This document shows positions 6,209 to 27,441 of a stretch of 64,000 bases of DNA, one piece after another. Within the stretch, counting starts at the first letter, position 1, and each line of letters begins with the position of its first letter. The DNA is from Candidatus Woesearchaeota archaeon (GTDB lineage Archaea; Nanobdellota; Nanobdellia; SCGC-AAA011-G17; JACPNG01), in NCBI GenBank assembly GCA_018303365.1, contig JAGVYI010000016.1:15330-79329 (forward strand). Reading direction: 5' to 3'. Below the pieces are notes generated by a model. That model was not told where the DNA came from and searched no databases. It saw only the letters and a program-made list of their open reading frames with translations. The translations under genes and the position numbers were made by a program.

Positions 6209-6964
6209 ATGCAAAAAAGAGGACAACTTTACATTATTGCTGCACTTATTTTTAGTGCAGTTCTTTATACCCTTGCTACGCAAGCAAATACCTACAGGCA
6301 AGAAGACTTTGCCGAGGGTTTTGATGACCTTTCGACCAACTATGCTACTGAGAGCGAACGTCTTGTCAATTCACTTTTATATTCTAATCAAGATGTTCTT
6401 TCCGGGTTTACTAATTTTACACTTCTTTTTACCGGCTATACTAAATCGAAGAATCCTTCCTTTGGCTTGATATACATCTTTGAATTTAATGAGACTATTC
6501 AGGTTGGCAATTTTCTTGACCGGCCTATTATTATTGATACCGGTGATGCACAAAGTTATGATTTTCATAATTTGGAGGGGTGTTTTGACCGCGTTTCTGC
6601 TGTTGTGAAGTTTGCTGGTCTTTCTTTTTCCAGCGACGTTGCTGCAGGTGATATCCAGGAGTGCATTCTTACTTTTCCTACCAAGGATCAGATATGGATT
6701 GGAGTTGATGATGCCTGGTATCCTTTCTCTGTTGTTCGCGGCAAACCAACACTTATGATTGTTACCCGCCAAGAAGCCCAAGAACAAAGAAAGGTTTTTA
6801 TAGGCGGTGAAGGATTTGTTCGTAACAACCGTGACCGTCCTGGACTTCGCTCTCATTGCGAACAGTTGTCTTTGACTTCATGTGAGCTTGCAGGCAATAG
6901 GCGTCTTTGCTGTGTCAGGGATGGTGATTGCGTTCCGCAATATAACTGCATGGAAGAGGGGTGA
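6209..6964 (+). CDS. Class-III signal peptide (archaeal type IV pilin-like) protein.
   Basis: N-terminus MQKRGQ followed by about 20 hydrophobic residues (LYIIAALIFSAVLYTLA). It is first in a run of three overlapping pilin-like genes. Confidence 0.5.
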   Translation: MQKRGQLYIIAALIFSAVLYTLATQANTYRQEDFAEGFDDLSTNYATESERLVNSLLYSNQDVLSGFTNFTLLFTGYTKSKNPSFGLIYIFEFNETIQVGNFLDRPIIIDTGDAQSYDFHNLEGCFDRVSAVVKFAGLSFSSDVAAGDIQECILTFPTKDQIWIGVDDAWYPFSVVRGKPTLMIVTRQEAQEQRKVFIGGEGFVRNNRDRPGLRSHCEQLSLTSCELAGNRRLCCVRDGDCVPQYNCMEEG

Positions 6965-7401
6965 TGTTTATCTTGAAAAAAGGTGTCGGTGCTCTTATAG
7001 GATGGGTTCTTCTTCTGGGTTTTGTTATTAGTATTGGCACTATGGTTTTTTTGAGTTTGCGGACTCATACTACTGAGCTTAGCGATCGTACTGTGAATTA
7101 TATATCTGGGCGCCTTGAATGTTCGGAAATCAACATTAACGTTGTTACTGCTCCTTCTTGCTCTTCGTTCTCCGTGACTAACAGGGGTGTTCTTAATATC
7201 GACCAAGTTGCTGTACGAATTTATAACGGCGAGACCCCAGTTGGTCAAACCCAGATATTTGAGAGTGTTATTGCGCCACATGCAACTGTAGATTATACGC
7301 CAGATTCTTCTGGTGAGCGCATAGAGGTTATTCCTATTGTTCTTATTGATAACAAACCATCAGGCTGTCTTGAGCGGAGGATTATCAAGCCATGTGGTTG
7401 A
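6961..7401 (+). CDS. Class-III signal peptide pilin-like protein.
   Basis: MMFILKKGVGALIGWVLLLGFVISIGTMVFL. ATGA overlap with the upstream gene. Confidence 0.5.
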   Translation: MMFILKKGVGALIGWVLLLGFVISIGTMVFLSLRTHTTELSDRTVNYISGRLECSEININVVTAPSCSSFSVTNRGVLNIDQVAVRIYNGETPVGQTQIFESVIAPHATVDYTPDSSGERIEVIPIVLIDNKPSGCLERRIIKPCG

Positions 7402-7862
7402 CTTCCAGGCAGGGTATTTCACCCTTTATTGCGACTGTTCTTCTGATTGGGCTTACAGTTACTGTTGCGCTTACAGTTATTCTTTGGGGTAGGAGTTACA
7501 TCCAAGAGCGCGCTGCTAAAGAAGGGGCTCTTTCTGAGAAGCAACTTACCTGCAAGATGATTTCATTTACTGCTACCCAGTCTTATCAGCAGTCTGGAGA
7601 GGTACACCTTGTGCTTAAAAATAAGGAAGACATTTCTATTGATAAATTTACTTTCCGCATTGAAGGGTCTGCTGCTGAACCAAAAGAGCGATATGATACG
7701 CTTCCTTCCCTTGCTACCAAAGAATATATTCTTTCATTTACTGAGGATGAACTGCAAAATATCGACCAGGTTTTTATTGTTCCTTGGCTTCGCGTTGCTT
7801 CAGGAGTTTATGTTCCCTGTTCTGACCAACATTTAACGGTCAATATTCTTTCGACTTCTTGA
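7392..7862 (+). CDS. Archaeal pilin/flagellin-like protein (DUF361-type N-terminus).
   Basis: RQGISPFIATVLLIGLTVTVA is the canonical archaeal class-III, DUF361-like N-terminus. Confidence 0.6.
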   Translation: MWLTSRQGISPFIATVLLIGLTVTVALTVILWGRSYIQERAAKEGALSEKQLTCKMISFTATQSYQQSGEVHLVLKNKEDISIDKFTFRIEGSAAEPKERYDTLPSLATKEYILSFTEDELQNIDQVFIVPWLRVASGVYVPCSDQHLTVNILSTS

Positions 7863-10217
7863 TTTTTCTTTGTATATTCCAAGTGCATAAAGAATACTTA
7901 TCAAGATGCTTGTTATCAGCAAGTTTGCTGTTGTAAATACCGGGAAGGCTCTTTCCCTTATGCATTCTGCCTGCTCTGCTGGTGTAAATTCAAACCTACA
8001 CAATTCATTTGTCCCCCTATAAACACATTTTGAGATGTCCCTTGTTCTGATGTTTGTTTCCGGGTCACATTCTGACCATTCTGTTGCAGTACAGTCCCAC
8101 TCTGCAAGGCACCTTGTCTGTCCTTTTGAGCACCCTTCGTTGTTGACACCTGTGCACAAGGGCGTTGATGTGCAAAGGTCCTGAAGGTTTGTTACACCGT
8201 CGCAGTCAAAGTCGTCTGTCCCACATGGCCTTACTTCCAGCTTGTTCGCTGATTTTACTTTTCTTTCCCCTACCTTGACATTGAAGTAATATTCAGGGTC
8301 TCCCTGCAAGAATCCATCATCTGTCCAATTAGCAGCCCAGATAGTCCTTGCTGACCTGTTGTCTATTCTTGTTGGTGTTGGAGGTGGAGGGGTTAGGGTA
8401 TCTCCAACAAGATCATCTTCAATCACTTCAAACTGCAGTTCTTTTCCATTGCAGTCTGGTCTTGTTTGTACTGTGATATTTACTTCTTTTCTATCTGCCG
8501 AGCAAGTTGGTTGCCATGATGCTGCTGTGATTGAGCAGCAATCCGGGTCTACACTATTACAGCGAGCATCTGCTGTGCATATTCCATCCGGGAGTGGATT
8601 ACAGCCGCATGCATATGAAGTACATGCGTTTCCTTGAAGACAGCTATCCTGCTGCTGATTACAGTCAGGGCATAAGCAATTTTCCCCTGGCTCACAGCTG
8701 TTTATACCATTACACTGGTAGCAGGTTCCTCCACGCGCCGTGGCGTCTTGCAGACAGGTGTAGCAATTCTCTCCTTGTTGAAGTTGATTGTCTCCGCATG
8801 TTCCACAGGTTTGACCTGTTGCTATAAGATCTTGCGGGCATGTTTGGCATATTTCTCCTTCATCTATTATTCCGTTTCCGCAACTTTGACATACTCCCGG
8901 GGGCATATCTTGGGGGCAAGTACCACAGTTTTCTCCATTAAGATAGTCTGGTTGGTTATTTCCACAGCTTAGGCATGTTTGTCCGGGCATGTCTTGCGGG
9001 CAGTTCCTGCAGTCTTCTCCTGTATCTGGGACACTGTTTCCACAGAAGCTATTTCCAGAGCAGTCTGGGTCAGGGGGTGTACATCCAGCTAAACATCCGT
9101 CTCCTCCCTGGCATGTGAGTGCATCACAGTCTGGGTCTGGTGTTAAGCAGCTTTGTGGTCCACATCCATCTCCCGGAGCACAAGTTGCTGCGCCACCACA
9201 ATCTGGGTCTATTGGATTGCACCCAATTACACAAAAACCATCTTCTCCATTGTCACATACTCTTCCTACACAATCTGGATCTGATGGCAGACAACCTGCC
9301 AGGCACCCATTTCCTACTTGGCAAGTTGTTTGTCCGCAATCTGGGTCTTGCGGGTTACATATGCCGCCTCCACATCCGTCGCCTGGAAGACACGTTCCTC
9401 CGCCGCAATCCGGATCTATTGGGTTGCAACCTACAGCACACGCATCACCTGGTGAACACGTTGCAACAGGAAAGGATGTGCAAACCCATGAGCCTTGGTT
9501 TTGCAGGCAGACCTCTCCATTTCCACACCCCGCATCGTCCGGACAGTTGTTACAATCTTCTCCTGTGTTTATTCTTCCATTCCCACACTCAGTTGTTGGT
9601 CCTTCTTCTGTTACTTCCAACAAGGGTGATTTTCTTAAAATCACTTCTGTTCCATTATCAAGGATGTGTGCGTTGAAATAATATTCTGGGTTGTCTGTTA
9701 TGAATGGGAAGATGCTTTCGTCCTGCCAATCTGCAATCCAAGATGAGCGGGCTTGACCTTCGCTATTAAATGGTGCTGGGAGTGGGTCTGGAGTGTAATC
9801 GTCATCAGGCGTTATTGGGGTGTCTTTTTCAAGGATATCCCACTGTACAATTTTCCCTCTGCAAGCCTGCGAACCCTCTACAGAGAGGAATACACGTTGT
9901 CTGTTTCCCGCTCTTGTTATTTCAATCAGGCTTGTATCTTTCCAGTTTATTGTATTGATACTACAACAGGCGGGATCTCCTTCATCTACTCCGGTAGAAG
10001 GGTCAAGATCAAATCCTCCTTGCGCATTATTGCAGTTATTGTCTATTCTATCTGTACAGTCTTCAACTTGGCCGTAGAAAATTAACGGATCGTTTGGGTT
10101 GCAATCCAAGGGATTGTCTGTTATTGGCTGCTGAAATCCTTGTGGTGATGCTGTTTGCACGACTAATAGAAGAAAACCAAGTATTAGTACTGCAAACACT
10201 CCTTTTTTGATTGGCAT
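7833..10217 (-). CDS. Giant secreted cysteine-rich surface protein with tandem C-x-P-x-DPDC repeats and a C-terminal transmembrane anchor.
   Basis: Signal peptide MPIKKGVFAVLILGFLLLVV. At least 6 tandem ~23-aa repeats (CNPIDPDCGGGTC..GDGC..). About 12% Cys. C-terminal TM helix plus KEKSRSRK tail. Confidence 0.7.
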   Translation of the reverse strand: MPIKKGVFAVLILGFLLLVVQTASPQGFQQPITDNPLDCNPNDPLIFYGQVEDCTDRIDNNCNNAQGGFDLDPSTGVDEGDPACCSINTINWKDTSLIEITRAGNRQRVFLSVEGSQACRGKIVQWDILEKDTPITPDDDYTPDPLPAPFNSEGQARSSWIADWQDESIFPFITDNPEYYFNAHILDNGTEVILRKSPLLEVTEEGPTTECGNGRINTGEDCNNCPDDAGCGNGEVCLQNQGSWVCTSFPVATCSPGDACAVGCNPIDPDCGGGTCLPGDGCGGGICNPQDPDCGQTTCQVGNGCLAGCLPSDPDCVGRVCDNGEDGFCVIGCNPIDPDCGGAATCAPGDGCGPQSCLTPDPDCDALTCQGGDGCLAGCTPPDPDCSGNSFCGNSVPDTGEDCRNCPQDMPGQTCLSCGNNQPDYLNGENCGTCPQDMPPGVCQSCGNGIIDEGEICQTCPQDLIATGQTCGTCGDNQLQQGENCYTCLQDATARGGTCYQCNGINSCEPGENCLCPDCNQQQDSCLQGNACTSYACGCNPLPDGICTADARCNSVDPDCCSITAASWQPTCSADRKEVNITVQTRPDCNGKELQFEVIEDDLVGDTLTPPPPTPTRIDNRSARTIWAANWTDDGFLQGDPEYYFNVKVGERKVKSANKLEVRPCGTDDFDCDGVTNLQDLCTSTPLCTGVNNEGCSKGQTRCLAEWDCTATEWSECDPETNIRTRDISKCVYRGTNELCRFEFTPAEQAECIRERAFPVFTTANLLITSILISILYALGIYKEKSRSRKNIDR

Positions 10218-10266: not shown

Positions 10267-12564
10267 TTAGAATAAGCGACCTACCCAGCTTCCTATGTTA
10301 TCTATCATTCTTTCAATAACATTTCTTCTTTCTATCCCTTCTTCGGTTAACTCCTCTAATGCTTCCCGCCACTTTCCTGTCCTGATGAGCTTTACAACAT
10401 TCTCTTCTTCAAGCCCCTTTCTTTGCTTTACCAACTGTTCACGTTGCGCTAATTCCTCTGGTGGCAGTTCTGTTCCAAGAGCTGGTGCTGGCAAGTCTTC
10501 GCATAGGGGGGCGTCAAAATCAATAAGCCCGTCCCCATCACGGTCACAAATACTTTTTGTTGAGTCACTTGCTTCATTTATAAGACCGTCACAGTCTTCA
10601 TCCCTTCCTATTAGGTCACAGCACTCTGTTCCTACATTTCCTTTTTGTTCATAGTATTCGCACCTATTTGCGCATATTCCGTCTCCATCAAAATCAAACC
10701 ATCCACCACGGCACCCACTGCATTGTCCTTGTTCACATGTGAGGGCATTATTTGCAGCACAACTGTTGCCACATTCTCCACAATTGTTGGGGTCATTTCT
10801 TGCATCAAGTTCACACCCATCAGATAAGTCTCCGTTGCAATTTCTGAATCCTTGGTTACAACTTTCAATTAGACATACCCCAGATTCACACCTTCCCCTT
10901 GCATTTTGAAGATTACAACTGTTCCCTATTGCACCACAGTTACTTACGTCATTGTTTAGGTCTGCACAGGTGCTTGTTTGTGAATTCCACGAACAACTTT
11001 CTCCTGTTGCAACGTTGCATGGGTTTTGCAAGCAAGTTGTTTCATCTTTATAGTCTTGGCAGCTATTTGCATTTTCTTGGCATGCTGTACATAGGTCTGG
11101 TAGAAGAGTTCTTTGTGTGTAAAAGCAATTGCCCCCACATGTATCACAGACTTGTCTTGAGCATGTGCTTAGAAGGCCGCTTCCACATTCTTGACAGGAT
11201 GCGCAGGCACATTCTCCCCTGTTAATACATGCTGGGTTTGATGAACAGGCATCCTGTGTTGCACACCCATCTGAGCCTATTTGGCAACCTGCGGGGGTGT
11301 TCCTACATATATCTTGGCAATCATTTATCCCGTCTTCGTCTGAATCTCCTGCGGGTACAAGACGATATCCTTGGCAGATTCTGTTATCCTGAGTGCATTC
11401 TCCGTGAGTATTACATTCTTTTTCTCCACCACAGGTTCGTCCTTCAAATGTTCTGCTTAGGATACAGCCTGATGGGCACGTACAAATGCTTGGATTTCCT
11501 TTGATGCTTGGGTTTGTACATGTTTCGCCACATGCTGCAACATCTGTTGTCACCACCTGTTGTTGACCTACGCAATCCGGGTCTGGTGTGCTGCACCTTA
11601 ATGCACACCCGTTTCCCGCGGCACATGTTGATATTGACGTACAATCTTGGTCATAGTATGCACAATTTACTCCTAATTCTACCGGGCAAAACCCATCAGT
11701 TGCTCCGCATGCATAACATGTGTTGCAGATTTCTACTGCTTGTCTTGAATTGAGAGTGAAACCAAGTAGTCCGCAGGCGGTTGTTGTTCTTTCTCCTTCA
11801 ACAATTGTCCTTGTAGGCTGGGTTGTTTGCTGCTCTGTTCCTGTTTGCGTGCTTGCAGGAGCACTTGCCCTTATTGTTAGGCTTGTCTGCCCTGTTGCTC
11901 CAGCACTGTCTGTTACTGTAAGCCTGACAGTGTATTGACCTGCACTTTGATAGGTGTGGCTTGGGTTTTGTATCCTAGCTGTTTGTTCGTCTCCAAAATC
12001 CCAATTGTATGTAAGTATTCCTCCGTCTGGGTCTGATGAACCTAAACTATTGAATCGTACTGTTAGAGGAACTGTTCCTGAAAGAGGGTCTGCGTTTGCC
12101 CTTGCAGTTGGAGGATTGTTTAGCGGCTCTTGGGTTGTTCCTGTTTGTTGTGGTGCTGTTACGGTTATTGTGACAGTTTGACTTGCGCTTTCTCCTTTGT
12201 CATCTCTTAATGTAAATGTTGCTGTGTAGATTCCAGGTTGATTATAAGTTTTGGTTGGATTCTGGCTGTTAACTGGCTGAGACCCATCACCATAATCCCA
12301 TGTGGCAACTGTTGGGTCTCCATCTGGATCTGTTCCAGAACCAAAGAACCTTATAGTATGAGGGGCATTTCCTGATGGAGGGTTAGCTTCTATACTTATT
12401 ATTGTAGGTGCTCTGTTTTCTGGTTGTGCTTGCTCCTCTCCTGTCTCTTCAGGTGGTGGTGGGGGGATACCTCCTGGACCGCCGAGCTGAGCATTAGATA
12501 CTCCTATAGGGAGTAAAATAAGAATGATTAGTATTGCAATTAGTCTCTCTGACCTCTTTTTCAT
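10267..12564 (-). CDS. Large secreted protein with two PKD-like domains, Asp-rich Ca-binding (thrombospondin type-3-like) repeats and a Cys-rich region.
   Basis: Signal peptide, then PPPPPEE. PKD signatures WDYGDGS and WDFGDE. DSDEDGINDCQD and DRDGDGLIDFD repeats. It shares a CSTPDPDC motif with the neighbouring protein. Confidence 0.7.
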   Translation of the reverse strand: MKKRSERLIAILIILILLPIGVSNAQLGGPGGIPPPPPEETGEEQAQPENRAPTIISIEANPPSGNAPHTIRFFGSGTDPDGDPTVATWDYGDGSQPVNSQNPTKTYNQPGIYTATFTLRDDKGESASQTVTITVTAPQQTGTTQEPLNNPPTARANADPLSGTVPLTVRFNSLGSSDPDGGILTYNWDFGDEQTARIQNPSHTYQSAGQYTVRLTVTDSAGATGQTSLTIRASAPASTQTGTEQQTTQPTRTIVEGERTTTACGLLGFTLNSRQAVEICNTCYACGATDGFCPVELGVNCAYYDQDCTSISTCAAGNGCALRCSTPDPDCVGQQQVVTTDVAACGETCTNPSIKGNPSICTCPSGCILSRTFEGRTCGGEKECNTHGECTQDNRICQGYRLVPAGDSDEDGINDCQDICRNTPAGCQIGSDGCATQDACSSNPACINRGECACASCQECGSGLLSTCSRQVCDTCGGNCFYTQRTLLPDLCTACQENANSCQDYKDETTCLQNPCNVATGESCSWNSQTSTCADLNNDVSNCGAIGNSCNLQNARGRCESGVCLIESCNQGFRNCNGDLSDGCELDARNDPNNCGECGNSCAANNALTCEQGQCSGCRGGWFDFDGDGICANRCEYYEQKGNVGTECCDLIGRDEDCDGLINEASDSTKSICDRDGDGLIDFDAPLCEDLPAPALGTELPPEELAQREQLVKQRKGLEEENVVKLIRTGKWREALEELTEEGIERRNVIERMIDNIGSWVGRLF

Positions 12565-12647: not shown

Positions 12648-13670
12648 GTGCGTTCTTTTCTTTTTTTGGTCATGGTTAATCAAGAATTAATTAATTATCT
12701 TAAAAATGGGCTTTCACAGGGAAAATCTGTTGACTATCTTCGCTCTGAGCTTACTAAAGCGGGGTGGCCTTCTTCCTTGATTTTTGATGCTGTTCAAGCA
12801 GTTTCAGTACAGAAAACTTCTTTACCAAAACAACCTGCTTTAGAGAAAGGGCCTGAACAACCTTCTGTTCAGAAGCCTTTCGAGAAGACACCTGTTTCTT
12901 CCCCTATTAAAGCTGGATCTTCTTCAGAGGAGTATTTTGGTTATAGTGCTCCTGCTCCAAGTAAATTAAAGCTTTCTTCCAAACACTATATTGCCTTTGG
13001 AGCTGCAGGTATTTCTCTTGTTGTACTTGGAATTGTTTTGTTCTTTGTTTTTGGGCCTGGTGGTGGAGAGCGTGTCCTTACTGTTTCTGAACAATCTGGT
13101 GGTGGTTCAGCTTCAGTTGCTTCTTCTGGAAGTAGTACTACCCCTCTTAGCAATACTTCTTCTCAGAGTATTCCTTCTTCAGGTGACTTTGGCATACCAT
13201 CTAGTCAGGTTAATGCCCTTGGCAGTCAGGGTAGCGCGGTTTGTGAAAATGGGGTTTTAGAGGCTGGAGAGACCTGTGATGGGAATTGTCCGACTAACTG
13301 CACTTCCTCATCTTCCTGCGTTAGTGCTGTCCTTTATGGAAGCGCTCCTTCTTGCACCTCACAATGTGTTCTTGCCAACATAACCTCTTGTGTTTCTGGA
13401 GATGGCTGCTGCCCCTTTGTTTGCAATGGTTTTACTGATTCTGACTGTTCTGGCGGACAGCAAATTAATCAAACGTCAAATCAGAGTTCTGGACAAGGAG
13501 CGTTGCAAAGCTGTTCTTCTCAGGGAGGTAGTGTTTGTCCTTCCGGCCAAAGCTGTTCTGGCAGCATTGTTTCTGCTTCAGATACTTCTTTATGCTGTAT
13601 CGGTACTTGTGAGAGTTCATCTGAAGAAGACTCTGGAGTTGCTCCTCCACCTCCACCCCCTTCAATGTGA
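12648..13670 (+). CDS. Single-pass membrane protein with a Ser-rich linker and a Cys-rich extracellular C-terminal domain.
   Basis: N-terminal soluble domain, TM at YIAFGAAGISLVVLGIVLFFVF, Ser-rich segment, at least 20 Cys in the last 150 aa, and a PPPPPPPS tail. Confidence 0.5.
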   Translation: MRSFLFLVMVNQELINYLKNGLSQGKSVDYLRSELTKAGWPSSLIFDAVQAVSVQKTSLPKQPALEKGPEQPSVQKPFEKTPVSSPIKAGSSSEEYFGYSAPAPSKLKLSSKHYIAFGAAGISLVVLGIVLFFVFGPGGGERVLTVSEQSGGGSASVASSGSSTTPLSNTSSQSIPSSGDFGIPSSQVNALGSQGSAVCENGVLEAGETCDGNCPTNCTSSSSCVSAVLYGSAPSCTSQCVLANITSCVSGDGCCPFVCNGFTDSDCSGGQQINQTSNQSSGQGALQSCSSQGGSVCPSGQSCSGSIVSASDTSLCCIGTCESSSEEDSGVAPPPPPPSM

Positions 13671-13745
13671 TGGGTGGTGTTCTAGTTGATTTGTTGATGG
13701 GTTGTTACGAAAATCTTTATATACCGCTTATAGTCTTTTTATTTA

Positions 13746-14327: not shown

Positions 14328-14331
14328 TTAG

Positions 14332-14577
14332 ATGATTAAGAAATCTATATTTGCTTTGATTTTTGTTTTTGGTTTATTCTTGTTTGGTTGCAGTTCTGGG
14401 CTAAGGGAAGCGAGCGGAAGTCTTCCTGTATCTCCCGGAACACCTGAGCAGGCGTCTGAGAATGCCGGTGTTGAGTCTGGTACTCCAAGCAGTCCTCCTC
14501 CATTTACCGGAGCTGTTATTGCTGAAGTTCCTCCTTTACCTGAACCTCCAGTGCAAGAAAGGTCTTCTCCTTACTAA
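14332..14577 (+). CDS. Small Pro-rich lipoprotein-like protein.
   Basis: LFLFGCSS lipobox-like motif after a signal sequence. Confidence 0.3.
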   Translation: MIKKSIFALIFVFGLFLFGCSSGLREASGSLPVSPGTPEQASENAGVESGTPSSPPPFTGAVIAEVPPLPEPPVQERSSPY

Positions 14578-19234: not shown

Positions 19235-20209
19235 ATGGCAGACACATCTTCGTTTGTTGACAAAGAGACTCTTTCGCGCTATGTTGCTTTTCGCAAGAAG
19301 CACAAAGGGGATTTGAAAGATGAGTATGTTCTTTATTCTTCAAGCCCATTTGGACAGTTTGCTAATTCTATTTTTGAATCTGTTTCGCTAAATCTTATAA
19401 AAAAATATCCGCAATATTTCAAGAGTTTGTTTAAGGTCCTACGCGCTTCTGATTTTCCAATTCTTTCAAAGACATATGTCAGCATTATTCTACTTGTTGG
19501 GTTAGCTTCTTATCCTGTTTTTTTTATTCTTCTGCTTCTTTTATTTGGATTCTCAATTACCGGCTTTCTTAACACTTTTCTTCTAAGCCTTTTTGGTGCT
19601 GGACTTGCTCTTTTTCTTGCTTACCAATACCCTTCTTTTTTGGTTTCTTCGCGTCAGAGAAAGTTAAAAAATGACCTTCCATTTGCAGTTATCCATATGG
19701 CTGCTGTTGGAGGCAGCGGAGCCCATCCTTCTTCTATGTTCAACCTTATTGCAACCTCAGATGAGTATAAAGGGGTTCATCCAGAATTTAAGCGGGTTCT
19801 AAACGCTGTGAACCTTTTTGGATATGACCTAAGCACTGCTCTTCGCTCTGTTGCTGACAGTACTGGCTCGAGGGATATTCGCGACTTTTTCGGGGGTATG
19901 GCAACAACAATTGAAAGTGGCGGCAGCATGAAGGAGTTTCTTGATTCAAAGTCTGAGGACCTGATGGTAACATATCGTCTTGAGCGCAAGAAGTTTATCG
20001 AGAGCCTATCAACCTATTCTGATATTTACATTAGCCTATCAATTGGCGGGCCCCTTTTCTTTTTTATTGTCCTTGCTATCTTAAATCTACTTGGCGGTTC
20101 TGTCGGCGGGGTTGCGATCGGCACTCTTGCCACTATCGGTACTTTTGTTATCCTTCCTCTTATCAACCTCGGATTTTTAGCATTTTTAAAATTTAGCAGT
20201 TTAGAATGA
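19235..20209 (+). CDS. FlaJ/TadB-like membrane platform protein, first half.
   Basis: TM segments flank a GspF-like cytoplasmic helical domain. It starts 3 nt after the ATPase stop. Confidence 0.6.
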   Translation: MADTSSFVDKETLSRYVAFRKKHKGDLKDEYVLYSSSPFGQFANSIFESVSLNLIKKYPQYFKSLFKVLRASDFPILSKTYVSIILLVGLASYPVFFILLLLLFGFSITGFLNTFLLSLFGAGLALFLAYQYPSFLVSSRQRKLKNDLPFAVIHMAAVGGSGAHPSSMFNLIATSDEYKGVHPEFKRVLNAVNLFGYDLSTALRSVADSTGSRDIRDFFGGMATTIESGGSMKEFLDSKSEDLMVTYRLERKKFIESLSTYSDIYISLSIGGPLFFFIVLAILNLLGGSVGGVAIGTLATIGTFVILPLINLGFLAFLKFSSLE

Positions 20210-21060
20210 TTAATTTCAAGAAAGAATATTTTGTCGGCATCAGTCTTGCTTTGGTTTTACTAGTTCTAGATGTCTTGTTTCTTCGCTCTACCCGCTGGTT
20301 TATTGCTATTATTATTGTTTCTATCAATATTGGCTGGCTTCAGTTCTGGATTGACTTTTTTCGTGAACAGAACCGTCAGAAGGAAATTGATACAAAATTT
20401 CTTGAGTTTGTTCGCAATCTTGTCAGCACTGCCAAATCCGGTCTTTCAATTCCCAGGGCTATTATTCAAGCTTCTGGTGAGGACTATGGCGCTCTTACAC
20501 CATATGTTCGAAAGCTTTCTCACCAGGTTGAGTGGGGTGTTCCTGTTGAAAAGGCTCTTTTGACCTTTGCAAAGGATACTCGAAATGCTGTGATCAGCAG
20601 GTCTGTTTCTATTGTTATTGAAGCGAGCAAGGCTGGCGGTGATATAGAAAATGTTCTTGATTCTGTTACTGATTCTGTGATGTACGTAAAGAAAATCAAG
20701 CAGGAGAGGAAAAGCGGAACGTACTCGCAAATAGTCCAGGGTTATATTGTTTTTTTTATTTTCATTGCAATAATGCTTGTTTTGCAGCTCTGGCTTTTTC
20801 CACAGTTTTCTAATTTGAAAGGTCTTGGCCAAGGCGGCTCAGAGCTTGCTGGTTCTCTTGGTACAGGTGCTATTTTCGGTGAAGGAAAGCGTGCTGACAT
20901 AGATAGCATTTTTTTTAGTCTTATTCTTGTACAAGGTTTTTTTTCGGGAGTTATGATTGGTGCGTTCTCTGAAGGAAGCGTGAAGCGCGGTCTTTTGCAT
21001 TCTCTTGTTTTGATGACTCTTGCAACGCTTATTATTACAACTGCGAAGGGCGGGATTTAG
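20206..21060 (+). CDS. FlaJ/TadC-like membrane platform protein, second half.
   Basis: A second GspF-like domain between TM segments. ATGA overlap with the first half. Confidence 0.6.
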   Translation: MINFKKEYFVGISLALVLLVLDVLFLRSTRWFIAIIIVSINIGWLQFWIDFFREQNRQKEIDTKFLEFVRNLVSTAKSGLSIPRAIIQASGEDYGALTPYVRKLSHQVEWGVPVEKALLTFAKDTRNAVISRSVSIVIEASKAGGDIENVLDSVTDSVMYVKKIKQERKSGTYSQIVQGYIVFFIFIAIMLVLQLWLFPQFSNLKGLGQGGSELAGSLGTGAIFGEGKRADIDSIFFSLILVQGFFSGVMIGAFSEGSVKRGLLHSLVLMTLATLIITTAKGGI

Positions 21061-21062
21061 CA

Positions 21063-21607
21063 AAACATTTATTAATAACCCATTAAACATTAATTTTAAT
21101 GAAAAAGAGATCAAAGAAGAAGCCTTCTTTTAAGTTTTACCATCACCAGCTTTACATTCCAATCCTTCTTGTTCTTTCTTTTGCCTCCCTTGCTTTGCTG
21201 TGGATATTTAGCACCGGTGCGACTGGTTATGCCACCTACAGCTTTGGCAACACTGTTCCGCAGGGGTTCGGTGTTCCTTGGAATTTGTTTTCCAGTCAGC
21301 ATGAGAACTTGCTTGATTCTTCTGATAATACAATAAATGTTAAGGCAACTTTTGTCTATAAGTGGGGTTATATATGGGATCATAATGTCAGGCAGTGGAA
21401 GGGGTTTGAGTTTCCACAGCAGAAGGTATTTAATAATTGGGTTGCAAGAGAGGCTTCTTTTGATCTTAATAGCTTAAACCTTGTCCCTGGAGAGTATTCT
21501 GTTGTTGCCTATACCTGCCAGTATGTGAATAATGAATGGAAGTGCGGCTGTCGAACCTCACAGTGTCGAAGCGGTGTTGATGGAGGCATGTGGCAGATAC
21601 AGAAGGT
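21063..21607 (+). repeat. Direct repeat copy B (partner of 14603..15141).
   Basis: See copy A. Confidence 0.8.
21068..21078 (+). promoter_or_regulatory. Archaeal TATA box (TTTATTAATAA) for paralog B; leaderless spacing.
   Basis: Same element and spacing as at 14608. Confidence 0.45.
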
Positions 21608-22832
21608 TGATATTATTTCTGGCATAACCAAAGTAGGGACTGTGACTTATCGTGATGGCGATGCTTTTATTGGAGAAAATAAAAATAATCCAAAATGGGT
21701 TTGGAATTTAGAAGGTTTAACTACAAGTAATCCTACTCTTGGTGTTGAAAATGATTGGAAATATAGGGGTGTGTCCGATAGGGATACTGGTGTTTCTAGT
21801 GCTATTGGGGTTAGACAGTGTACAAACCTTCCAAATAATTATATTACCATTTGTTTTGCTGATATTGTTGGTTTAAACGAGAACATAGATAATTATACTA
21901 TATCCTTTGAGGAGAATATTGATTTGAGTGGTGCTGGAGGAAGATTTTCAACTTATATAGCCCGAAATGTTATTACCATTAGTAGTAATACCCAAAGTAT
22001 TGACTTGCATTCTTCTGCATCCCACGTTGTTACAAATTATGTTGCTTTAGTTATAGATGATTTAGATTCTAATAAGATAAACTTGTTCTATAAGGGGAGT
22101 AGGGGTTTTGTATTCTTTAGTGATTTAGCGAATTCAAAAGTGGCACTCTCCAATGATTGGTCCAATGATTTGCGACTTGATTTGATGAGTGGGTCTGGTG
22201 ACTTATACTCTTTGCACATTAATTCTCCTGTTGATGTTATTTCAGCTTTGTTCCGTGCTAGTGGTGGACGCGGTTTTTCTTCTCTTGGTAGCACACGTGG
22301 TTATGAAGAGTCTGGAGAATTGGTGTGGCAGTCTGACGACCCTAATACCGGAGTTGCTCTTTACTCTTTGAATATAGGGGCAATAGATGCAGACCTTCGA
22401 ACGTTGTATGGTGTTGTCATAAAAAATCCACGCGGCAATGGGGCTTCTGATGAAATATCCTTAGAAGTTCCAAGCAAACAACTTAGGGGGATTATTGAGA
22501 TAACTTCTCCTTCACTTAGACAACGAAAGGAAATTGCACTGGGGGGGTCCATAGGCAATAATCCATTATTTTCGGATAGCAATTATGGACTACTTACTTT
22601 TTCAAGAGACAGTCCAAGCCTAGAAACCAGTCTGTCTAGTTCAGAGAATGATTATGGAAGGAGGATATTTATGGAAGTAGATGTTGATTCTATAGCATAC
22701 ACTTCCCGTTCTCTTGACCTTTCAAGGCTAAGAACAGCATCCCCCCAAAATCCAGTTACGATAAATCATTTATTAGGAAGAGATATTACAATAACCGGAG
22801 TAACAGATAATTCAATAACAGTACTACAATAA
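21099..22832 (+). CDS. Surface protein paralog B: the same conserved N-terminal module, with a different C-terminal domain.
   Basis: The N-terminal ~170 aa are nearly identical to the 14639 gene; the remaining ~400 aa are unrelated. Confidence 0.65.
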   Translation: MKKRSKKKPSFKFYHHQLYIPILLVLSFASLALLWIFSTGATGYATYSFGNTVPQGFGVPWNLFSSQHENLLDSSDNTINVKATFVYKWGYIWDHNVRQWKGFEFPQQKVFNNWVAREASFDLNSLNLVPGEYSVVAYTCQYVNNEWKCGCRTSQCRSGVDGGMWQIQKVDIISGITKVGTVTYRDGDAFIGENKNNPKWVWNLEGLTTSNPTLGVENDWKYRGVSDRDTGVSSAIGVRQCTNLPNNYITICFADIVGLNENIDNYTISFEENIDLSGAGGRFSTYIARNVITISSNTQSIDLHSSASHVVTNYVALVIDDLDSNKINLFYKGSRGFVFFSDLANSKVALSNDWSNDLRLDLMSGSGDLYSLHINSPVDVISALFRASGGRGFSSLGSTRGYEESGELVWQSDDPNTGVALYSLNIGAIDADLRTLYGVVIKNPRGNGASDEISLEVPSKQLRGIIEITSPSLRQRKEIALGGSIGNNPLFSDSNYGLLTFSRDSPSLETSLSSSENDYGRRIFMEVDVDSIAYTSRSLDLSRLRTASPQNPVTINHLLGRDITITGVTDNSITVLQ

Positions 22833-22888: not shown

Positions 22889-25834
22889 TTGATGTTTAAA
22901 AGAGGTGTAAGCCATATTGACTGGGCTATTAGTATTGGCATCTTTCTTGTCCTTGTCCTCAGCATTGTTGTTTTTTTAAGACCTGGAGTTGAGACTTTTA
23001 CAAGCCATCAGGCGCTTGTGCAAACTGTCGAGTCAAACCTTAGAAGTGAATTTTCCAACGAACTTGAAAAGACTCCAATTTTTATTAATTCCACTGAGCA
23101 GCGTGCTGGAGATTACCAGATTACTTTCACTTTTGATGGTGGGGGCTTTCCATTTGAGGGAGAGAATGAAGAGTTTGTTGTTGTTGACTCTTTGAGCGCT
23201 GTTGTCCCGACTCAAATTTCAGGGGATGGCAGGGACCGTACACTTCGCTTTGACGGGTTTTTAGACCCACGCAAGACAAATGTGTTTTATATTCTCCATG
23301 CAAACGACACAACTTATTTGTCTTCTAATTTGGAGAACACATTTGTTCTTTTTGCTGGCTTAAACTTTTCTTATGACTTTGGAGTTACCAGAATAGAGCG
23401 CGGTTTTGACCTTTCAAGACTTCGTACAATTGAGCAGGATTATGATGCACTTAAAGAAACTTGGGGAATTCCTTCGGACAGAGAGTTTCTTATTCAAATT
23501 GCGCAGACTGACACATTTCGCTATACTTTTGATGACATTATTTTTCGCTATGCCAGACAAGACCCTACTTTTCAATCAGATGTTTTTGTTAAGGAGTTTA
23601 GAGATATTCTTCTTGACCCAAATGGTACGCGCACACCAATTCTTGTGAATATTCAAGCTGGGTTTTTTGGTGAGCCTACAAAGATTATATGCGCTGTTGA
23701 TGAAGATTGTGGGGTTTGCAACAGTTGTGTTAACGGCCAATGTGAAGCAGTCTCTTTTGGCAGTGATCCTCTTAACCAATGCAAAGATGTTGACTGCAGT
23801 GATTATTACTTTGGGTTTGTCGGCGGTGTTTGCTATGGGCGCGCTTCTATCCAGTCTGTTTGCAATGGTGCTGGGGCATGTACACAGGTTTCCGAGGATG
23901 ATTGTCCTGTTTCTGGTCGCGGAGAGTCATCAGGTGTGAGCTGTAGTGAATGCCAGCAAGAGAGCGGGTGCTCTGGGACCACTATGGGTTCTTGCTCTGT
24001 TGCTCTAGATGGTACAGATTGCATGGGGCTGTGCTCGCAGTGTGTTTCAGGTGCGTGCCGCCAGGCACCTTCTGATGATGCCTCGTGCGGCACTATTGAC
24101 TGCGATAACCTTGATGGATATAGCGTTGTTGGAGACAACTCTGCAAGCGGCAGTGCGAGCTGTGTTTTACGGGATTACTCCGACTTAACTTCCAATCGCT
24201 GTGAGGGGCTTCTTGACTGCCGAGATCCAAATACCGCCCCTGATTGTTCTGTTTTTACAGATAGGACTTTAGCTAATTGCGGTGTTTGCCAGCGTGTGCA
24301 AAGCTGTTCTCCTAATGGTGCGACCTGTACCACCTATCCTGCTAATACTCCCTGCGGCCCAGACAGGGTTTGCACTGAGACGGGTCAGTGCGTACGCTCT
24401 CCTCTTGAGATTCGTGGGGTCAAGCGCTTTACTTCCGGCAATTATGAATATGGTTTTGTTCGTATTTATCCTGGCGGGAAAATTATTCTTGATGGAGACA
24501 ATGTTGCTATTACTGTTGATGCATTTTTTGAAAATAACGGTGCTGTTGAGAGCAATACTTTTTCTCCACATCTTACTATTCGCGGCAGAGAGATTACTGG
24601 TTCTGGCCCTTATGCCCTTCAAGGAGGAAGGGGTCGCTATGAATGCGGGTGGAATGATGCTTGCTGGTGGGGAAGCGGAGGAGATTCCTCTCTTGTTTTA
24701 GATGCCAGTGCTGTATCTACAGGGGCTGTTAATGTTCGTTCTGGTTCTGGAGGTCCTGGAGGCAGGGCTTCTGTGATATTCAGGAATGCCCAAAATGGAA
24801 ACGTTGCGTCTTTGAGTGTTATTGGGGCTTCAGGAGCCAATAGCGGCATTAGTTCTTTTGGATGTAGCGGTTATAATGGTGGCAGTGCTGATGTTTCCTT
24901 TGAGTCTAGCTCTTTAAATATTGGGTCTGTTGTTGTTCAAGGAGGAGATGCTTCTTCTCCTGCATGTGTCGGTGAACCTGGGACCGGCGGGAGTGCTACT
25001 TTTCGTGGCAGCGGCAGTGGAGCTTCTATTACCTTTACTTCTTCTTTTAATTTAGAGGGTGGGGATGGCACCAGCGGTTATAGTTCTTATTATAGAACTT
25101 CTGTTTTTGGGCGCGGTGGATCTGCAGAGGTTTCTTTGAGCAATGGCGGAGATGTTTCTTTTCTTGGGCCAGTAAACCTTCAAGGCGGTATCGGCGGTTA
25201 CTCCTCAGGTGCGGGTGTTATGAGCATATCTGCAAACAGACTATCCCAAAAAAGGGAACTTGTTATTGCTGCTGGCCAAGCGCGAAGCGGTGTTTGCCGT
25301 GCTTATACCTGTTGGGATTCTGGGGCAGTGCTTAATTCACAGGGTGGAGAAGCGCGTTTGAGCTTTTCAGGGAATTCTTATACTTCTGAGGGGCCTGTTA
25401 CACTTACTGCTGGGTCTGGGTTTTCTGTCTCTTCTGGAGGCAGCGCCCTTGTTTCCATTCAAGCAACAAACAGCTTTTCTTATACTTCTCCTTTTACTCT
25501 GCGCGCCGGGAACTCTTTTGATGGGTGCCTTAATGGCTATTATGGAGGAAATGCAATTGTTGATATCAATAGTCAGACTATTTCAGGCAGCTCCTCTTTT
25601 ACTACTTATGGTGGTAATGGAGGCCGCGCCTCTGAACCTTACTGGTGTAATGATGCGTGCTATGAACGTGTGGGGGGTAATGGGGGAGATTCTCTTTTGC
25701 GCCTTCGTACCAGTTCAACAGACCCACCCCATAATGGGCAGGGAGGGAGTGTGGGAGGCAATGCCGGAAGTTTTTGTCGTTATAAGCAGTCTTCGCGACC
25801 AACAAATGGGAGGTTTGCAACAGAAAGATATTGA
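22889..25834 (+). CDS. Giant (981 aa) pilin-anchored surface protein: class-III-like N-terminus, a Cys-rich region, and a long Gly/Ser-rich repetitive region that may be beta-helix-like.
   Basis: MMFKRGVSHIDWAISIGIFLVLVLSIVVF. Dense Cys clusters across aa 260-480. Recurrent GG.G/SGS segments in the C-terminal half. Confidence 0.65.
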   Translation: MMFKRGVSHIDWAISIGIFLVLVLSIVVFLRPGVETFTSHQALVQTVESNLRSEFSNELEKTPIFINSTEQRAGDYQITFTFDGGGFPFEGENEEFVVVDSLSAVVPTQISGDGRDRTLRFDGFLDPRKTNVFYILHANDTTYLSSNLENTFVLFAGLNFSYDFGVTRIERGFDLSRLRTIEQDYDALKETWGIPSDREFLIQIAQTDTFRYTFDDIIFRYARQDPTFQSDVFVKEFRDILLDPNGTRTPILVNIQAGFFGEPTKIICAVDEDCGVCNSCVNGQCEAVSFGSDPLNQCKDVDCSDYYFGFVGGVCYGRASIQSVCNGAGACTQVSEDDCPVSGRGESSGVSCSECQQESGCSGTTMGSCSVALDGTDCMGLCSQCVSGACRQAPSDDASCGTIDCDNLDGYSVVGDNSASGSASCVLRDYSDLTSNRCEGLLDCRDPNTAPDCSVFTDRTLANCGVCQRVQSCSPNGATCTTYPANTPCGPDRVCTETGQCVRSPLEIRGVKRFTSGNYEYGFVRIYPGGKIILDGDNVAITVDAFFENNGAVESNTFSPHLTIRGREITGSGPYALQGGRGRYECGWNDACWWGSGGDSSLVLDASAVSTGAVNVRSGSGGPGGRASVIFRNAQNGNVASLSVIGASGANSGISSFGCSGYNGGSADVSFESSSLNIGSVVVQGGDASSPACVGEPGTGGSATFRGSGSGASITFTSSFNLEGGDGTSGYSSYYRTSVFGRGGSAEVSLSNGGDVSFLGPVNLQGGIGGYSSGAGVMSISANRLSQKRELVIAAGQARSGVCRAYTCWDSGAVLNSQGGEARLSFSGNSYTSEGPVTLTAGSGFSVSSGGSALVSIQATNSFSYTSPFTLRAGNSFDGCLNGYYGGNAIVDINSQTISGSSSFTTYGGNGGRASEPYWCNDACYERVGGNGGDSLLRLRTSSTDPPHNGQGGSVGGNAGSFCRYKQSSRPTNGRFATERY

Positions 25835-26550
25835 AAATGACTTTTTTGTTTTGGGATAGAGATGGTGTTTTTTCAAAAAAAGGGTCTACTCTCTTTTTTT
25901 TAATCGTTCTTATACTCTTAGGAATAGGCGCTTATTTTGGATATCGTTATTTTTTTCCTGATGACCAGAAAACCTTTAATCAGTCTATCTTAGAAGAAGA
26001 TGTTGGGGGTTGCTCTAGCATTGATGATCCTTTTTTGCGCCGCTCTTGCATTCATTTTATTTTGGGTAATCCCAACATTACTGAAGAACATTTTCTTTTT
26101 ACTGACCCTTTAGCACGCACTTTTGAGAGCATCCATAGCGCCACTGTTTATCCTAATGGAACACAAATTCCTTGCGAACGCATTGACGATGCTGGTCTTA
26201 GCGAGGCCTGCCTTTCCTTGAAAGGGCAGGATACCACGTGCTCTGATTCGTGCAAGGCTTGGGTTTCTTATCTTAGTGCAATAAAAAAAGATGATCCTTC
26301 TTTATGCGATTCCCTGACAGAGGTTCTTGTTTCATCTAAGGGGGTTTCACTTCGAGGGGCTTGCTTTTCTTTTTTTGAGGGTTATGATACTCCACCACTT
26401 GAATCTCTTGAACACAATGAGAAGTATTACCGCGATGCTCTTTTTTCTTTGAAATTAGAAGAATGCGAAAAAATTACTCTGGACTCTTTTCGTGAGAAGT
26501 GCAGAGAAGATGTTTCTCTACGCCTTTCTGTTCTGGAGGATCAACAATGA
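25831..26550 (+). CDS. Class-III signal-like membrane-anchored Cys-containing protein.
   Basis: SKKGSTLFFLIVLILLGIGAYFGY. ATGA overlap with the upstream gene. Confidence 0.45.
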   Translation: MKMTFLFWDRDGVFSKKGSTLFFLIVLILLGIGAYFGYRYFFPDDQKTFNQSILEEDVGGCSSIDDPFLRRSCIHFILGNPNITEEHFLFTDPLARTFESIHSATVYPNGTQIPCERIDDAGLSEACLSLKGQDTTCSDSCKAWVSYLSAIKKDDPSLCDSLTEVLVSSKGVSLRGACFSFFEGYDTPPLESLEHNEKYYRDALFSLKLEECEKITLDSFREKCREDVSLRLSVLEDQQ

Positions 26551-26963
26551 TTTTCTCCAATCGCTCAGGGTATCTTAGAACACTTGAGGCAATTATTGCT
26601 GCTGTCCTTGTCCTTATATTCATTTTTACACTTCTTCCAAGGCGTGAGATTTCTTCCCCTGAGACCCCTTATGTTGTTCAAAGCTCACAGGAATTTATAT
26701 TGAACCAGATTCTTGTTAATGACACTCTTCGCGGGTGTGTTGTTTCTGATCCGCTGTGCGAGAATTCTGATGCTATGCGTCAGCTTATTCTAGACAATCT
26801 TCCTCCGGGGTACACTTATGGATTTAAGATTTGTGACACTACTAATTGCCTTATTTCTACATCTCCGGATAAGTCGGTCTTTGTTGATGACGTGCTTCTC
26901 TCTGCTGATTTGGCAAGCCAGAATCCAAAAGTATTTCGCCTTTGGCTCTGGGAAGGAGAGTAA
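26547..26963 (+). CDS. Pilin-like small protein.
   Basis: MIFSNRSGYLRTLEAIIAAVLVLIFIFTLLP. ATGA overlap; internal start chosen. Confidence 0.4.
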   Translation: MIFSNRSGYLRTLEAIIAAVLVLIFIFTLLPRREISSPETPYVVQSSQEFILNQILVNDTLRGCVVSDPLCENSDAMRQLILDNLPPGYTYGFKICDTTNCLISTSPDKSVFVDDVLLSADLASQNPKVFRLWLWEGE

Positions 26964-26994
26964 TCTTTAAAAATATCCTAGTTTTCTGTTTCCT

Positions 26995-27441
26995 ATGCTT
27001 CGAAAGGTTCTGGCTATCTTTATTTTTCTTATTCCTTTTGCTCTTGCCCAGTTTAGCCCTCCGGTTTACATTACCAATCCTGATACTGGCGAGTGCCGCT
27101 ATTACTTTGCAGGGGATGCTGCTCATTTTAATCCCAGACCCGAGAATTTCACAGTTACTATAGGTCCTGTTAATGCTTTTTCAGATGTTCTTGAAGCCTG
27201 TACGGTCTACCATTGTATTTCTAGTGGAGGGGGCTTTGGTGTTTCTAAGGAGTGTATTTGTCCAAATAGGGGCATATTTGTTAATAATACCGGCTGCGTT
27301 GGAGGTAAAGAGGCGAATCCTATTGTTTCAGATAGCCCCTCTTTTGATTTTGGACGTATTGTTTTAGCTATTAGCTTAATTGTTAATGGATTTTTATTGT
27401 ACTTTCTTTTAAAGAGGAGGAAGACTTATCATCAACATTAA
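26995..27441 (+). CDS. Secreted Cys-containing protein with a C-terminal TM anchor and basic tail.
   Basis: Signal peptide MLRKVLAIFIFLIPFALAQ. C-terminus IVLAISLIVNGFLLYFLLKRRK. Confidence 0.5.
   Translation: MLRKVLAIFIFLIPFALAQFSPPVYITNPDTGECRYYFAGDAAHFNPRPENFTVTIGPVNAFSDVLEACTVYHCISSGGGFGVSKECICPNRGIFVNNTGCVGGKEANPIVSDSPSFDFGRIVLAISLIVNGFLLYFLLKRRKTYHQH

Follow-up and report, generated by a model that had tools for sequence, protein, structure and literature searches.

A probable type IV filament operon of Woesearchaeota with a candidate modular pilin and strain-specific surface-protein insertions

Archaeal type IV filament systems and the Woesearchaeal locus

Archaeal type IV filament (TFF) systems come in several clades, as described by Makarova et al. 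2016 (PMC4858521) and by Sivabalasarma & Albers 2026 (bioRxiv 10.64898/2026.04.22.720090). According to these two sources, platforms encoded by two genes occur in system or clade 1 (Epd; also found in DPANN archaea), in many euryarchaeal clade 2 loci and in DPANN system 4A; large adhesin-like or β-helical proteins have been described in several of the subsystems. A signature of clade 2 is a FlaFind-positive minor pilin of variable length (250–550 amino acids, aa) that is encoded next to tadC (PMC4858521). The subject of the present study is a putative member of this family, located at positions 6209–27441 of a 64-kb window (the whole stretch of DNA that was analysed; 64,000 nucleotides of contig JAGVYI010000016.1 from a Candidatus Woesearchaeota archaeon). 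The window also encodes archaeal translation and transcription genes and DNA gyrase. ORFs (open reading frames) were translated over 3.9–31 kb of the window, and 20 of them make up the locus.

In an initial annotation, made from the sequence alone, these 21 kb were read as one dedicated adhesion apparatus of a small-genome archaeon. The elements that it listed were all found in their places, and the organism does belong to the DPANN. The identification as an archaeal type IV pilus-like (TFF) system also holds, as an assembly ATPase, a platform and filament subunits with class-III N-termini are all present. The single 21-kb apparatus fared less well; the conserved unit extends over only ~8 kb, and the rest has no counterpart in 80 related loci. 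From sequence homology, shared gene order, conserved motifs, domain architectures and the lack of conservation of the cargo genes, we consider it likely that the locus represents, in Woesearchaeota, an archaeal operon for the assembly of type IV filaments (pili), in which a compact core is combined with strain-specific surface-protein insertions, and in which one protein, here called BIG, is a modular pilin.

The conserved core operon

Relatives of the ATPase were sought in one genome per GTDB species. Among the 311 found, the best 80 (54–66% identity; labelled almost all as Woesearchaeota or Nanoarchaeia) provided the loci for comparison (numbered with L below), and every protein of the window was compared with these by tblastn. 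Many of the 80 loci end at contig ends, and the counts per gene are therefore lower bounds. The gene order in the relatives is fixed, namely (u1)-adk-pA-pB-pC-pD-pE-ATPase-F1-F2-BIG-pF, often followed by GTPase-OapB-OapC. This core takes up ~8 kb, with F1 and F2 as the N- and C-terminal halves of TadC (TadC-N and TadC-C) and a BIG protein of ~258 aa. Its members in the window are given below; a slash follows the Gly of the class-III motif, and the last figure is the number of loci with a match.

6209..6964, plus strand: pA, 251 aa, N-terminus MQKRG/QLYIIAALIF; 43/80
6961..7401, plus strand: pB, 146 aa, KKG/VGALIGWVLLLGF; 40/80
7392..7862, plus strand: pC, 156 aa, SRQG/ISPFIATVLLIGL; 51/80
16032..16529, plus strand: pD, 165 aa, QKRG/ISPLIATVLILGFT; 60/80
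16539..17060, plus strand: pE, 173 aa, KLG/EVWVSAVLYLALG; 65/80
17610..19232, plus strand: assembly ATPase of the FlaI/TadA/VirB11 superfamily, 540 aa, T2SSE (PF00437) E = 2e-34; 80/80
19235..20209, plus strand: F1, first platform gene, 324 aa; 77/80
20206..21060, plus strand: F2, second platform gene, 284 aa, overlapping F1 by 4 bp; 72/80
22892..25834, plus strand: BIG, modular minor pilin of 980 aa (981/980), MFKRG/VSHIDWAISIGIF; 62/80
26547..26963, plus strand: pF, 138 aa, NRSG/YLRTLEAIIAAV; 61/80

Between the end of pA and the beginning of pF lie 6.3–7.4 kb in 28 of the 34 complete loci, as against 19.5 kb here. There are three departures from the core: 8.1 kb are inserted between pC and pD, 1.7 kb between F2 and BIG, and 720 residues have been added to BIG. 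Only 0–328 bp separate F2 from BIG in 61 of 62 relatives (the exception, L036, is discussed below). Judged by the 311 relatives of the ATPase, of which the best 80 were examined, a pilus operon of fixed gene order is present in hundreds of species genomes of Woesearchaeota/Nanoarchaeia. The identical ATPase sequence is also present on groundwater metagenome contigs; Rifle-type groundwater samples in which the contig occurs are ERZ27254752, ERZ4903072 and SRR2090153.

Pfam and NCBIfam models were run on all 20 ORFs of the locus, and gave usable matches only for the ATPase, the platform halves, the PKD domains described below and pC/pD. The families named for such a check in the initial annotation were therefore recovered in part; T2SSE, T2SSF and PKD all matched, and neither DUF361/Class_IIIsignal nor Pilin_N matched any locus ORF, pD included, even at E ≤ 10. 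The predicted FlaI/TadA-type ATPase and platform were both confirmed. Among solved structures, the ATPase scores highest with Archaeoglobus fulgidus GspE2 (2OAP; 362 bits), followed by Sulfolobus acidocaldarius FlaI (4II7; 264 bits) and CpaF (163 bits). Each platform gene contains a single T2SSF domain (PF00482; E = 1e-13 and 3e-17); the two proteins cover residues 7–242 and 303–544 of the 555 in the ArlJ model, and jointly supply its N- and C-terminal halves. The platform is split in 72/72 related loci as well, and split platforms are described for archaeal systems 1, 2 and 4A; the split is therefore an ordinary trait and not a distinctive one.

The gap before the ATPase gene (17061–17609), which measures 550 bp here and ~100 bp in most relatives, has a TATA-like ATTATATAAG ~45 bp upstream of the GTG start of the ATPase, and a 106-aa minus-strand ORF that looks spurious.

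Class-III N-termini were scored by a FlaFind-style rule, defined here as [KRDE][GA] followed by 19 hydrophobic residues and used in place of FlaFind itself. Five of the 76 ORFs in the window pass, among them pA and pB, and all five lie inside the region (hypergeometric p ~8e-4, for a region with ~20 ORFs among the 76). N-termini of the types KRGQ, KKGVGA, RQGISP, KRGISP and SKKGST, each with a hydrophobic helix after it, are found at ORFs 6209, 6961, 7392, 15969/16032 and 25831/25837, and looser class-III-like motifs at ORFs 7392, 16539 and 26499/26547. Nearly all orthologues inspected (at most 12 per family) retain [KR]-G and the family-specific helix. The motif was counted in 42/43 orthologues of pA, 40/40 of pB, 50/51 of pC, 50/51 of pD, 51/60 of BIG and 58/58 of pF. 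With seven conserved families and one unconserved ORF (237 aa; see below), the total agrees with the 'at least eight' pilin-like N-termini counted initially, and the seven conserved class-III families of the Woesearchaeal operon are now defined.

Three of these families are related to each other. pB cross-matches pC and pD and has a weak UpsA-like match; pB and pC are paralogues of pD. Orthologues of pC begin with KKG/ISPLIATVLL, and on the model for the archaellin/type IV pilin N-terminal domain (TIGR02537) pC reaches 19 bits (E = 7e-4), just short of the cut-off of 20, while pD exceeds it with 27.6 bits. A profile of 32 pD orthologues matches the solved archaeal type IV pilins 8FK7 (E = 3e-7, residues 3–120) and 8REY (2.6e-6), as well as 9MYG, 8FJ5 and 8GI2; the similarity extends well past the signal peptide. 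In several relatives, pD occurs in tandem copies, as major pilin genes often do. pD is the probable major pilin.

The other four, pA, pE, the N-terminal module of BIG (BIG-N) and pF, are mutually unrelated apart from the N-terminal helix, and have distinct signatures after K-[KR]-G: QIYIL in pA, QIWISAVLY in pE, ASHxDWAIS in BIG and YIKTLEA, with an invariant Glu, in pF. The gene for pA always follows directly on adk; K-[KR]-G/Q-x-Y-I-L is conserved in its orthologues, and no Pfam family matches it. pE (median identity 39%; KKG/QIWISAVLY in orthologues) has a weak DUF7289 match, and BIG-N a weak DUF7287 match; both are haloarchaeal families, and in per-member Pfam scans the matches were seen in 2/32 and 5/33 orthologues, respectively, and covered the N-terminal helix only. 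Orthologues of pF start with KKG/YI(K/R)TLEA, and their Glu and two Cys residues are (nearly) invariant.

Among the described systems closest to the locus is the euryarchaeal clade 2/system 2 (the Haloferax PilB/PilC type and the A. fulgidus GspE2 loci). If GspE2 of A. fulgidus is, as we infer, a clade 2 ATPase, the nearest solved relative of the ATPase suggests this subtype. The plan is alike, with an ATPase, tadC (often as two genes), PilA-like KKG/ISPLIATVL pilins and, beside tadC, a FlaFind-positive minor pilin whose length varies; BIG, with a range of 197–980 aa in its family, is akin to this minor pilin. Clade 2 loci also contain large adhesin-like proteins, and the weak DUF7287/DUF7289 matches are further common ground. 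Unlike in clade 2, pA, pE, BIG-N and pF have no significant match to described families, and the arrangement of five pilin-like genes upstream and two downstream is fixed in, and specific to, Woesearchaeota.

The Epd pili of Methanococcus maripaludis (system 1, which is reported in DPANN) and bacterial Tad systems share with the locus the two platform genes (EpdJ/K and TadB/C) and the many minor pilin-like genes in one operon, and CpaF of the Tad system is a recognisable relative of the ATPase. In contrast to the Epd major pilin, which has ~70 aa and no globular domain, pD has 165 aa and a globular part like that of Sulfolobales-type pilins; this locus also lacks an EppA-type peptidase with nine transmembrane (TM) helices. 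The pD profile aligns with Aap and other solved archaeal type IV pili (8REY, 8FK7, 8FJ5, 8GI2), all of which are non-archaellar adhesive filaments. Aap loci differ in having a single platform gene, AapX and two pilins, without the pA/pE/BIG/pF set. Rather than a new kind of machine, the locus is a member of the archaeal type IV filament family that is well conserved in Woesearchaeota. Two-gene platforms and large adhesin-like proteins have already been described in archaeal TFF systems, and the initial view that a split platform and such an adhesin content set the locus apart from the characterised ones is therefore incorrect.

The candidate modular pilin BIG and the inserted surface-protein genes

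BIG, which NCBI lists as hypothetical and assigns to a Ca. Woesearchaeota archaeon, had been singled out initially as a 981-aa protein with a pilin-like N-terminus. It does start with MFKRG/VSHIDWAIS and has adhesin-like modules behind this start. Residues 1–262 form the pilin-like module, ~267–505 two Cys-rich 'CGTIDCD' modules, and ~510–940 a Gly/Ser-rich, all-β, solenoid-like part. Only residues 1–262 align with the relatives, in which the orthologues have 197–504 aa (median ~258); the rest has no homologue in the 80 loci. As the first module is orthologous to stand-alone proteins of ~258 aa and the Cys-rich module occurs in many architectures, BIG is likely, as judged from its sequence, a modular pilin and a candidate adhesin.

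A word-indexed homologue search returned no match for BIG-N and only the protein itself for the C-terminal part. An exhaustive HMMER search with residues 257–980 gave 90 relatives (numbered with P below), all through the Cys-rich stretch ~272–507. In the alignment of these relatives, the module has ~115 aa and is found in 124 copies in 74 proteins, with the consensus

p.DD..CGTIDCDG..Y..G...yC..Y.DiTsnRCEG.GDCKD.N..D.C...CG.C.y..gC...C.nY..GT.CG...C.g.G.C.

It matches no Pfam family. The window contains two copies, both in BIG, and the 1.28 Mb of the 80 related loci contain none. Among the relatives are two bona fide N_methyl pilins of bacteria, P0026 and P0108, with one or two CGTIDCD modules; the identity between the modules of BIG and P0026 is 46%. 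The gene for P0026 (L091:8001–9488) comes immediately after PilD in a PilM-PilO-PilB-PilT-PilC-pilin-PilD operon, with two more pilins after it. That for P0108 (L094:2396–3616) is arranged as pilin-PilD-modular pilin on a short contig, in which only pilin and PilD genes are visible. P0046, P0053 and P0057 have the module behind archaeal-type class-III N-termini, and the named cluster mates of P0021 and P0024 come from Nanoarchaeota and Ca. Gracilibacteria.

The combination of a small pilin module with grafted domains in a protein encoded among minor pilins is also known from bacterial modular pilins (Streptococcus sanguinis PilB with a vWA and PilC with a lectin domain; CofB of enterotoxigenic Escherichia coli; GspK). 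In bacteria, modular pilins are established as adhesins displayed at the tip, as in S. sanguinis PilB and PilC (PMC8179133). BIG differs in its archaeal class-III N-terminus without the N_methyl motif. A tentative, less probable extension of the modular-pilin reading is that BIG is a plug-in site at which ultra-small groundwater symbionts graft modules for the recognition of hosts or surfaces, and that pilins of DPANN and of bacteria, probably of the candidate phyla radiation (CPR), have come to share the CGTIDCD...RCEG...DCKD module by exchange or by parallel recruitment. If so, a common ligand or attachment strategy across both domains of life would be indicated.

For the Gly/Ser-rich part (510–980), no relatives were found. 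In a single-sequence AlphaFold model that covers residues 500–980, strand pairs are regularly repeated (mean predicted local distance difference test, pLDDT, 56; predicted template modelling score, pTM, 0.66), and the top of its Foldseek list, in which no match is significant, consists almost entirely of β-helix adhesins, autotransporter passengers and tailspikes. These features give a hint of a β-solenoid. Neither the Cys-rich module nor the Gly/Ser-rich solenoid-like part belongs to a described family. BIG is a concrete, testable adhesin candidate whose Cys-rich module is also found on bacterial pilins.

The remaining genes of the locus, which are unconserved, encode surface and secreted proteins:

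7833..10217, minus strand: 794-aa Cys-rich surface protein with 78 Cys, 7 DPDC and 5 CxxC(P/L)QD-type motifs and a C-terminal TM anchor
10267..12564, minus strand: 765-aa protein with 61 Cys, secreted (Sec-type signal), with 2 PKD domains and a Cys-rich C-terminal half
12648..15991, plus strand: four inserted ORFs of 340/350, 193, 81 and 450 aa, with no Pfam or NCBIfam family
21099..22832, plus strand: 577-aa paralogue B of the 450-aa protein, between F2 and BIG
25837..26550, plus strand: 237-aa ORF, SKKG/STLFFLIVLILLG, 10 Cys; passes the FlaFind-style rule; no family
26995..27441, plus strand: 148-aa membrane-anchored protein with a signal peptide, 6 Cys and a C-terminal TM helix

None of the 794-, 765-, 340-, 193-, 81-, 450-, 577-, 237- and 148-aa ORFs has a homologue in the 80 loci by tblastn. 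The two giant Cys-rich proteins are as initially described in their DPDC repeats and PKD domains (PKD_4, E = 1e-41, in the 765-aa protein, which also has an MXAN_6577-like Cys-rich match with E = 5e-4). Their TSP3-like stretches are visible by eye only; no TSP3 Pfam model matches either giant, and PF02412 or PF18884 is found only in some distant homologues. Database searches gave 18 homologues of the 794-aa protein, mostly 'cysteine-rich repeat proteins' of Woesearchaeota/DPANN, some with PF13948. For the two whose context was examined (P0002 and P0004), the genes lie outside pilus operons, at least 15 kb away or on other contigs; the identification of P0004 with a 650-aa protein encoded between pE and the ATPase gene in L011 was rejected by coordinates. 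Among the smaller ORFs, the 340/350-aa protein has a TM helix in its middle and a Ser/Cys-rich ectodomain, the 193-aa protein a signal peptide, and the 81-aa protein a lipobox-like LFGC. The 450-aa protein is paralogue A of the pair of surface proteins noted initially; the pairing stands, A and B being 81% identical over their first 172 aa and having 36 bp of upstream DNA in common, with unrelated C-termini. The inserted proteins are probably stabilised by disulfides.

Insertions comparable to those in the window are found only in L036. There, signal-peptide proteins of 1040, 545, 133 and 107 aa, unrelated to those of the window, are encoded between F2 and BIG (13895–20358), and a 433-aa protein with 22 Cys between pD and pE (L036:4691–5992). 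Because L036 has its own unrelated set, surface-protein genes were inserted into the operon more than once. In L011, L014 and L018, a 650-aa membrane protein with 14–15 Cys is encoded between pE and the ATPase.

The GC content at third codon positions (GC3) of the inserted genes is 0.26–0.35, which is within or just under the native range. They are therefore resident rather than recently acquired foreign genes, namely strain-specific surface-protein genes whose linkage to the operon is not conserved. Raised GC at 8–12 and 24–26 kb probably reflects the amino-acid content (Cys, Gly and Pro codons). A repeat search turned up the duplication shared by the two paralogues and no repeats flanking the insertions, the scanned ORFs gave no integrase, and the only tRNAs of the window are at 62 kb, far from the locus. 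A recently acquired foreign or mobile island was rejected on these grounds (native GC3, no flanking repeats, no nearby tRNA, no integrase). Of the two tRNAs, tRNA-Pro(CGG) (62487–62561) was found by ARAGORN and did not reach the gathering threshold of the Rfam tRNA model; the neighbouring tRNA-Ala was found by both.

The alternative closest to the initial annotation takes the whole 21 kb as one adhesion apparatus, with the giants and the paralogous pair delivered or anchored by the pilus machinery. It gains from the physical interleaving of the genes, nearly all of which encode exported proteins, and from the recurrence of the arrangement on contigs from several samples, which indicates that it is stable in the population. 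The insertion of signal-peptide and Cys-rich proteins in L036, and of the membrane protein in L011, L014 and L018, also fits, and the ambiguous N-terminus of the 794-aa protein (IKKG/VFAVLILGF) is readable as class III. However, across the 80 genomes no cargo gene is retained alongside the operon, most relatives are free of inserts, and the examined homologues of the 794-aa protein are encoded at least 15 kb away or on other contigs. Moreover, both giants are encoded on the opposite strand, and the Sec-type signal of the 765-aa protein and the C-terminal TM anchor of the 794-aa protein speak against the mechanistic tie to the pilus that had been proposed. We therefore regard a single apparatus as unlikely. 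Most simply, the giants are independent surface proteins, and neighbouring giant Cys-rich proteins such as these call for caution; they should not be read as machine parts. From the proposal of a dedicated attachment apparatus, the part concerning BIG survives, with its adhesin-like modules behind a pilin N-terminus; the giants and the paralogous pair are unconserved insertions.

Near the start of the window, outside the locus, lie genes for a partial DsbA-like thioredoxin (28–435; PF13462/PF01323), a 125-aa thioredoxin-like ORF with a CPHC motif (986–1363) and, in the same stretch (28–1363), a 176-aa four-TM protein of no family, possibly VKOR/DsbB-like. This set looks like one for extracytoplasmic disulfide formation, which would fit Cys-rich exoproteins. 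Another large surface protein (829 aa; 57348–59837), with an N-terminal TM helix and a CBM96 carbohydrate-binding module, is encoded elsewhere in the window.

Proposed function, alternatives and neighbouring genes

For a core operon that assembles a filament, the steps can be modelled by homology on archaeal and bacterial type IV pili. A PibD-type peptidase would cleave the class-III N-termini after the Gly, and the ATPase, together with the two-gene FlaJ/TadC platform, would pull the processed pilins out of the membrane into a growing polymer. The filament subunit would be pD, along with its paralogues pB and pC. Minor pilins prime or tip the filaments in bacterial type IV pili and type II secretion systems; pA, pE, BIG and pF most likely form such a priming or tip complex. 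BIG, having gained a C-terminal graft of 720 residues, would display an adhesin on the pilus, probably at its tip, and this graft may mediate attachment, possibly to a host. The inserted proteins would be exported on their own, the 765-aa protein by its Sec-type signal and the paralogous pair by signal-anchor N-termini; for the 794-aa protein, the N-terminus is ambiguous.

To our knowledge, no Woesearchaeote has been cultivated. A statement in PMC11291902 has it that all cultivated DPANN archaea need direct contact with a host cell. In a groundwater study, type IV pilus components were said to be missing from DPANN genomes (bioRxiv 10.1101/2020.05.14.094862), and our literature search on pili of Woesearchaeota found nothing specific. 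The Woesearchaeal pilus operon corrects this impression of pilus-less DPANN, and together with BIG it offers a testable candidate for DPANN attachment.

Several points weigh against the reading as a pilus operon with a modular pilin and unrelated inserts. For pA, pE, BIG-N and pF, there is no significant Pfam or PDB match beyond the weak N-terminal ones to DUF7287 and DUF7289, and their putative pilin fold follows from the N-terminus only. The residues at position −2 of pC and pE in the window are non-canonical (Q and L). A prepilin peptidase (Peptidase_A24) was not found in the 64-kb window by Pfam on membrane ORFs, by motif or by tblastn; processing is therefore a prediction for this genome. 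Both single-sequence models are of low confidence (pLDDT 46 and 56), and neither Foldseek search gave a significant match (best E = 0.12 for BIG 500–980). Finally, the co-location of surface-protein genes in one operon could reflect a functional coupling that is invisible to synteny.

Among the related loci, a true archaeal A24 prepilin peptidase (PF01478 and Arc_PepC_II) is encoded in L079 (10800–11633, minus strand), 6 kb from the pilus operon. Matches to the prepilin-peptidase motif in three others were rejected as A24 enzymes; they are presenilin-type signal-peptide peptidases (PF06550), encoded on the minus strand a few kb from the operon (L071:9092–10039, L075:15699–16541 and L077:12208–13107).

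DPANN archaea lack many biosynthetic pathways, which makes an uptake of DNA or nutrients plausible. A second alternative is that the machinery builds a short pseudopilus, a bindosome-like membrane-anchored scaffold or a device for DNA uptake, and that BIG remains in the membrane as a surface protein anchored by its class-III N-terminus. Four families out of the seven with class-III N-termini fall outside the classical pilins, the bindosome BasE model also matches the ATPase, with 209 bits, and class-III signals on surface proteins that form no filaments are widespread in archaea (bioRxiv 10.64898/2026.04.22.720090). The BasE score is, however, far under the cut-off of 1000 and BasF is matched weakly; the locus has neither substrate-binding proteins nor DNA-translocation genes, and pD resembles the subunits of solved long adhesive pili. 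A short scaffold is therefore improbable, and assembly of a pilus by the core operon is preferred.

An archaellum (motility) has next to no likelihood: the top NCBIfam models are indeed FlaI for the ATPase and ArlJ/FlaJ for both platform halves, but the scores (394 bits with a cut-off of 550; 101 and 57 bits with cut-offs of 400–570) stay below threshold, the ATPase is nearer to the non-archaellar GspE2 than to FlaI, and the locus gave no significant match to the seven components (the archaellin/FlaF/FlaG/FlaH-type set) that all archaella contain (PMC4858521). No archaellin Pfam model matched in the locus even at E ≤ 10, and permissive searches among the locus proteins gave no significant match for FlaF, FlaG, FlaH, FlaCDE or FlaX; the sole match to an archaellum accessory protein is that of pD to ArlF, which is sub-threshold (E = 0.019; 15 bits, cut-off 110). 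Among its refuting conditions, the initial annotation had itself named a grouping of the ATPase with archaellum-only FlaI alongside archaellin genes elsewhere; the scores of the ATPase speak against such a grouping. By these sequence comparisons, an archaellum appears effectively refuted for this locus, and the pilus-type system is the assignment indicated.

Directly downstream of the pilus operon is the GTPase-OapB-OapC trio (27543–28968; PF01926, PF09846, PF09845). It is found near the operon in 17–22 of the 80 related loci, either adjoining it or beyond an archease/RtcB block. The gap between pF and the GTPase was considered as a hot spot for adhesin genes and rejected, as relatives hold archease, RtcB and other housekeeping genes there. 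RtcB downstream of the operon comes in two size classes in the relatives, of ~460–490 aa and 780–1011 aa. The long forms (for example L008:15754–18126, L017:16790–19132, L028:16042–19077 and L045:14444–17398) probably contain inteins. Near the start of the window, a 208-aa membrane protein (1360–1986) matches the bacterial lipoprotein intramolecular transacylase Lit (PF07314, E = 1e-15), which is unexpected in an archaeon.

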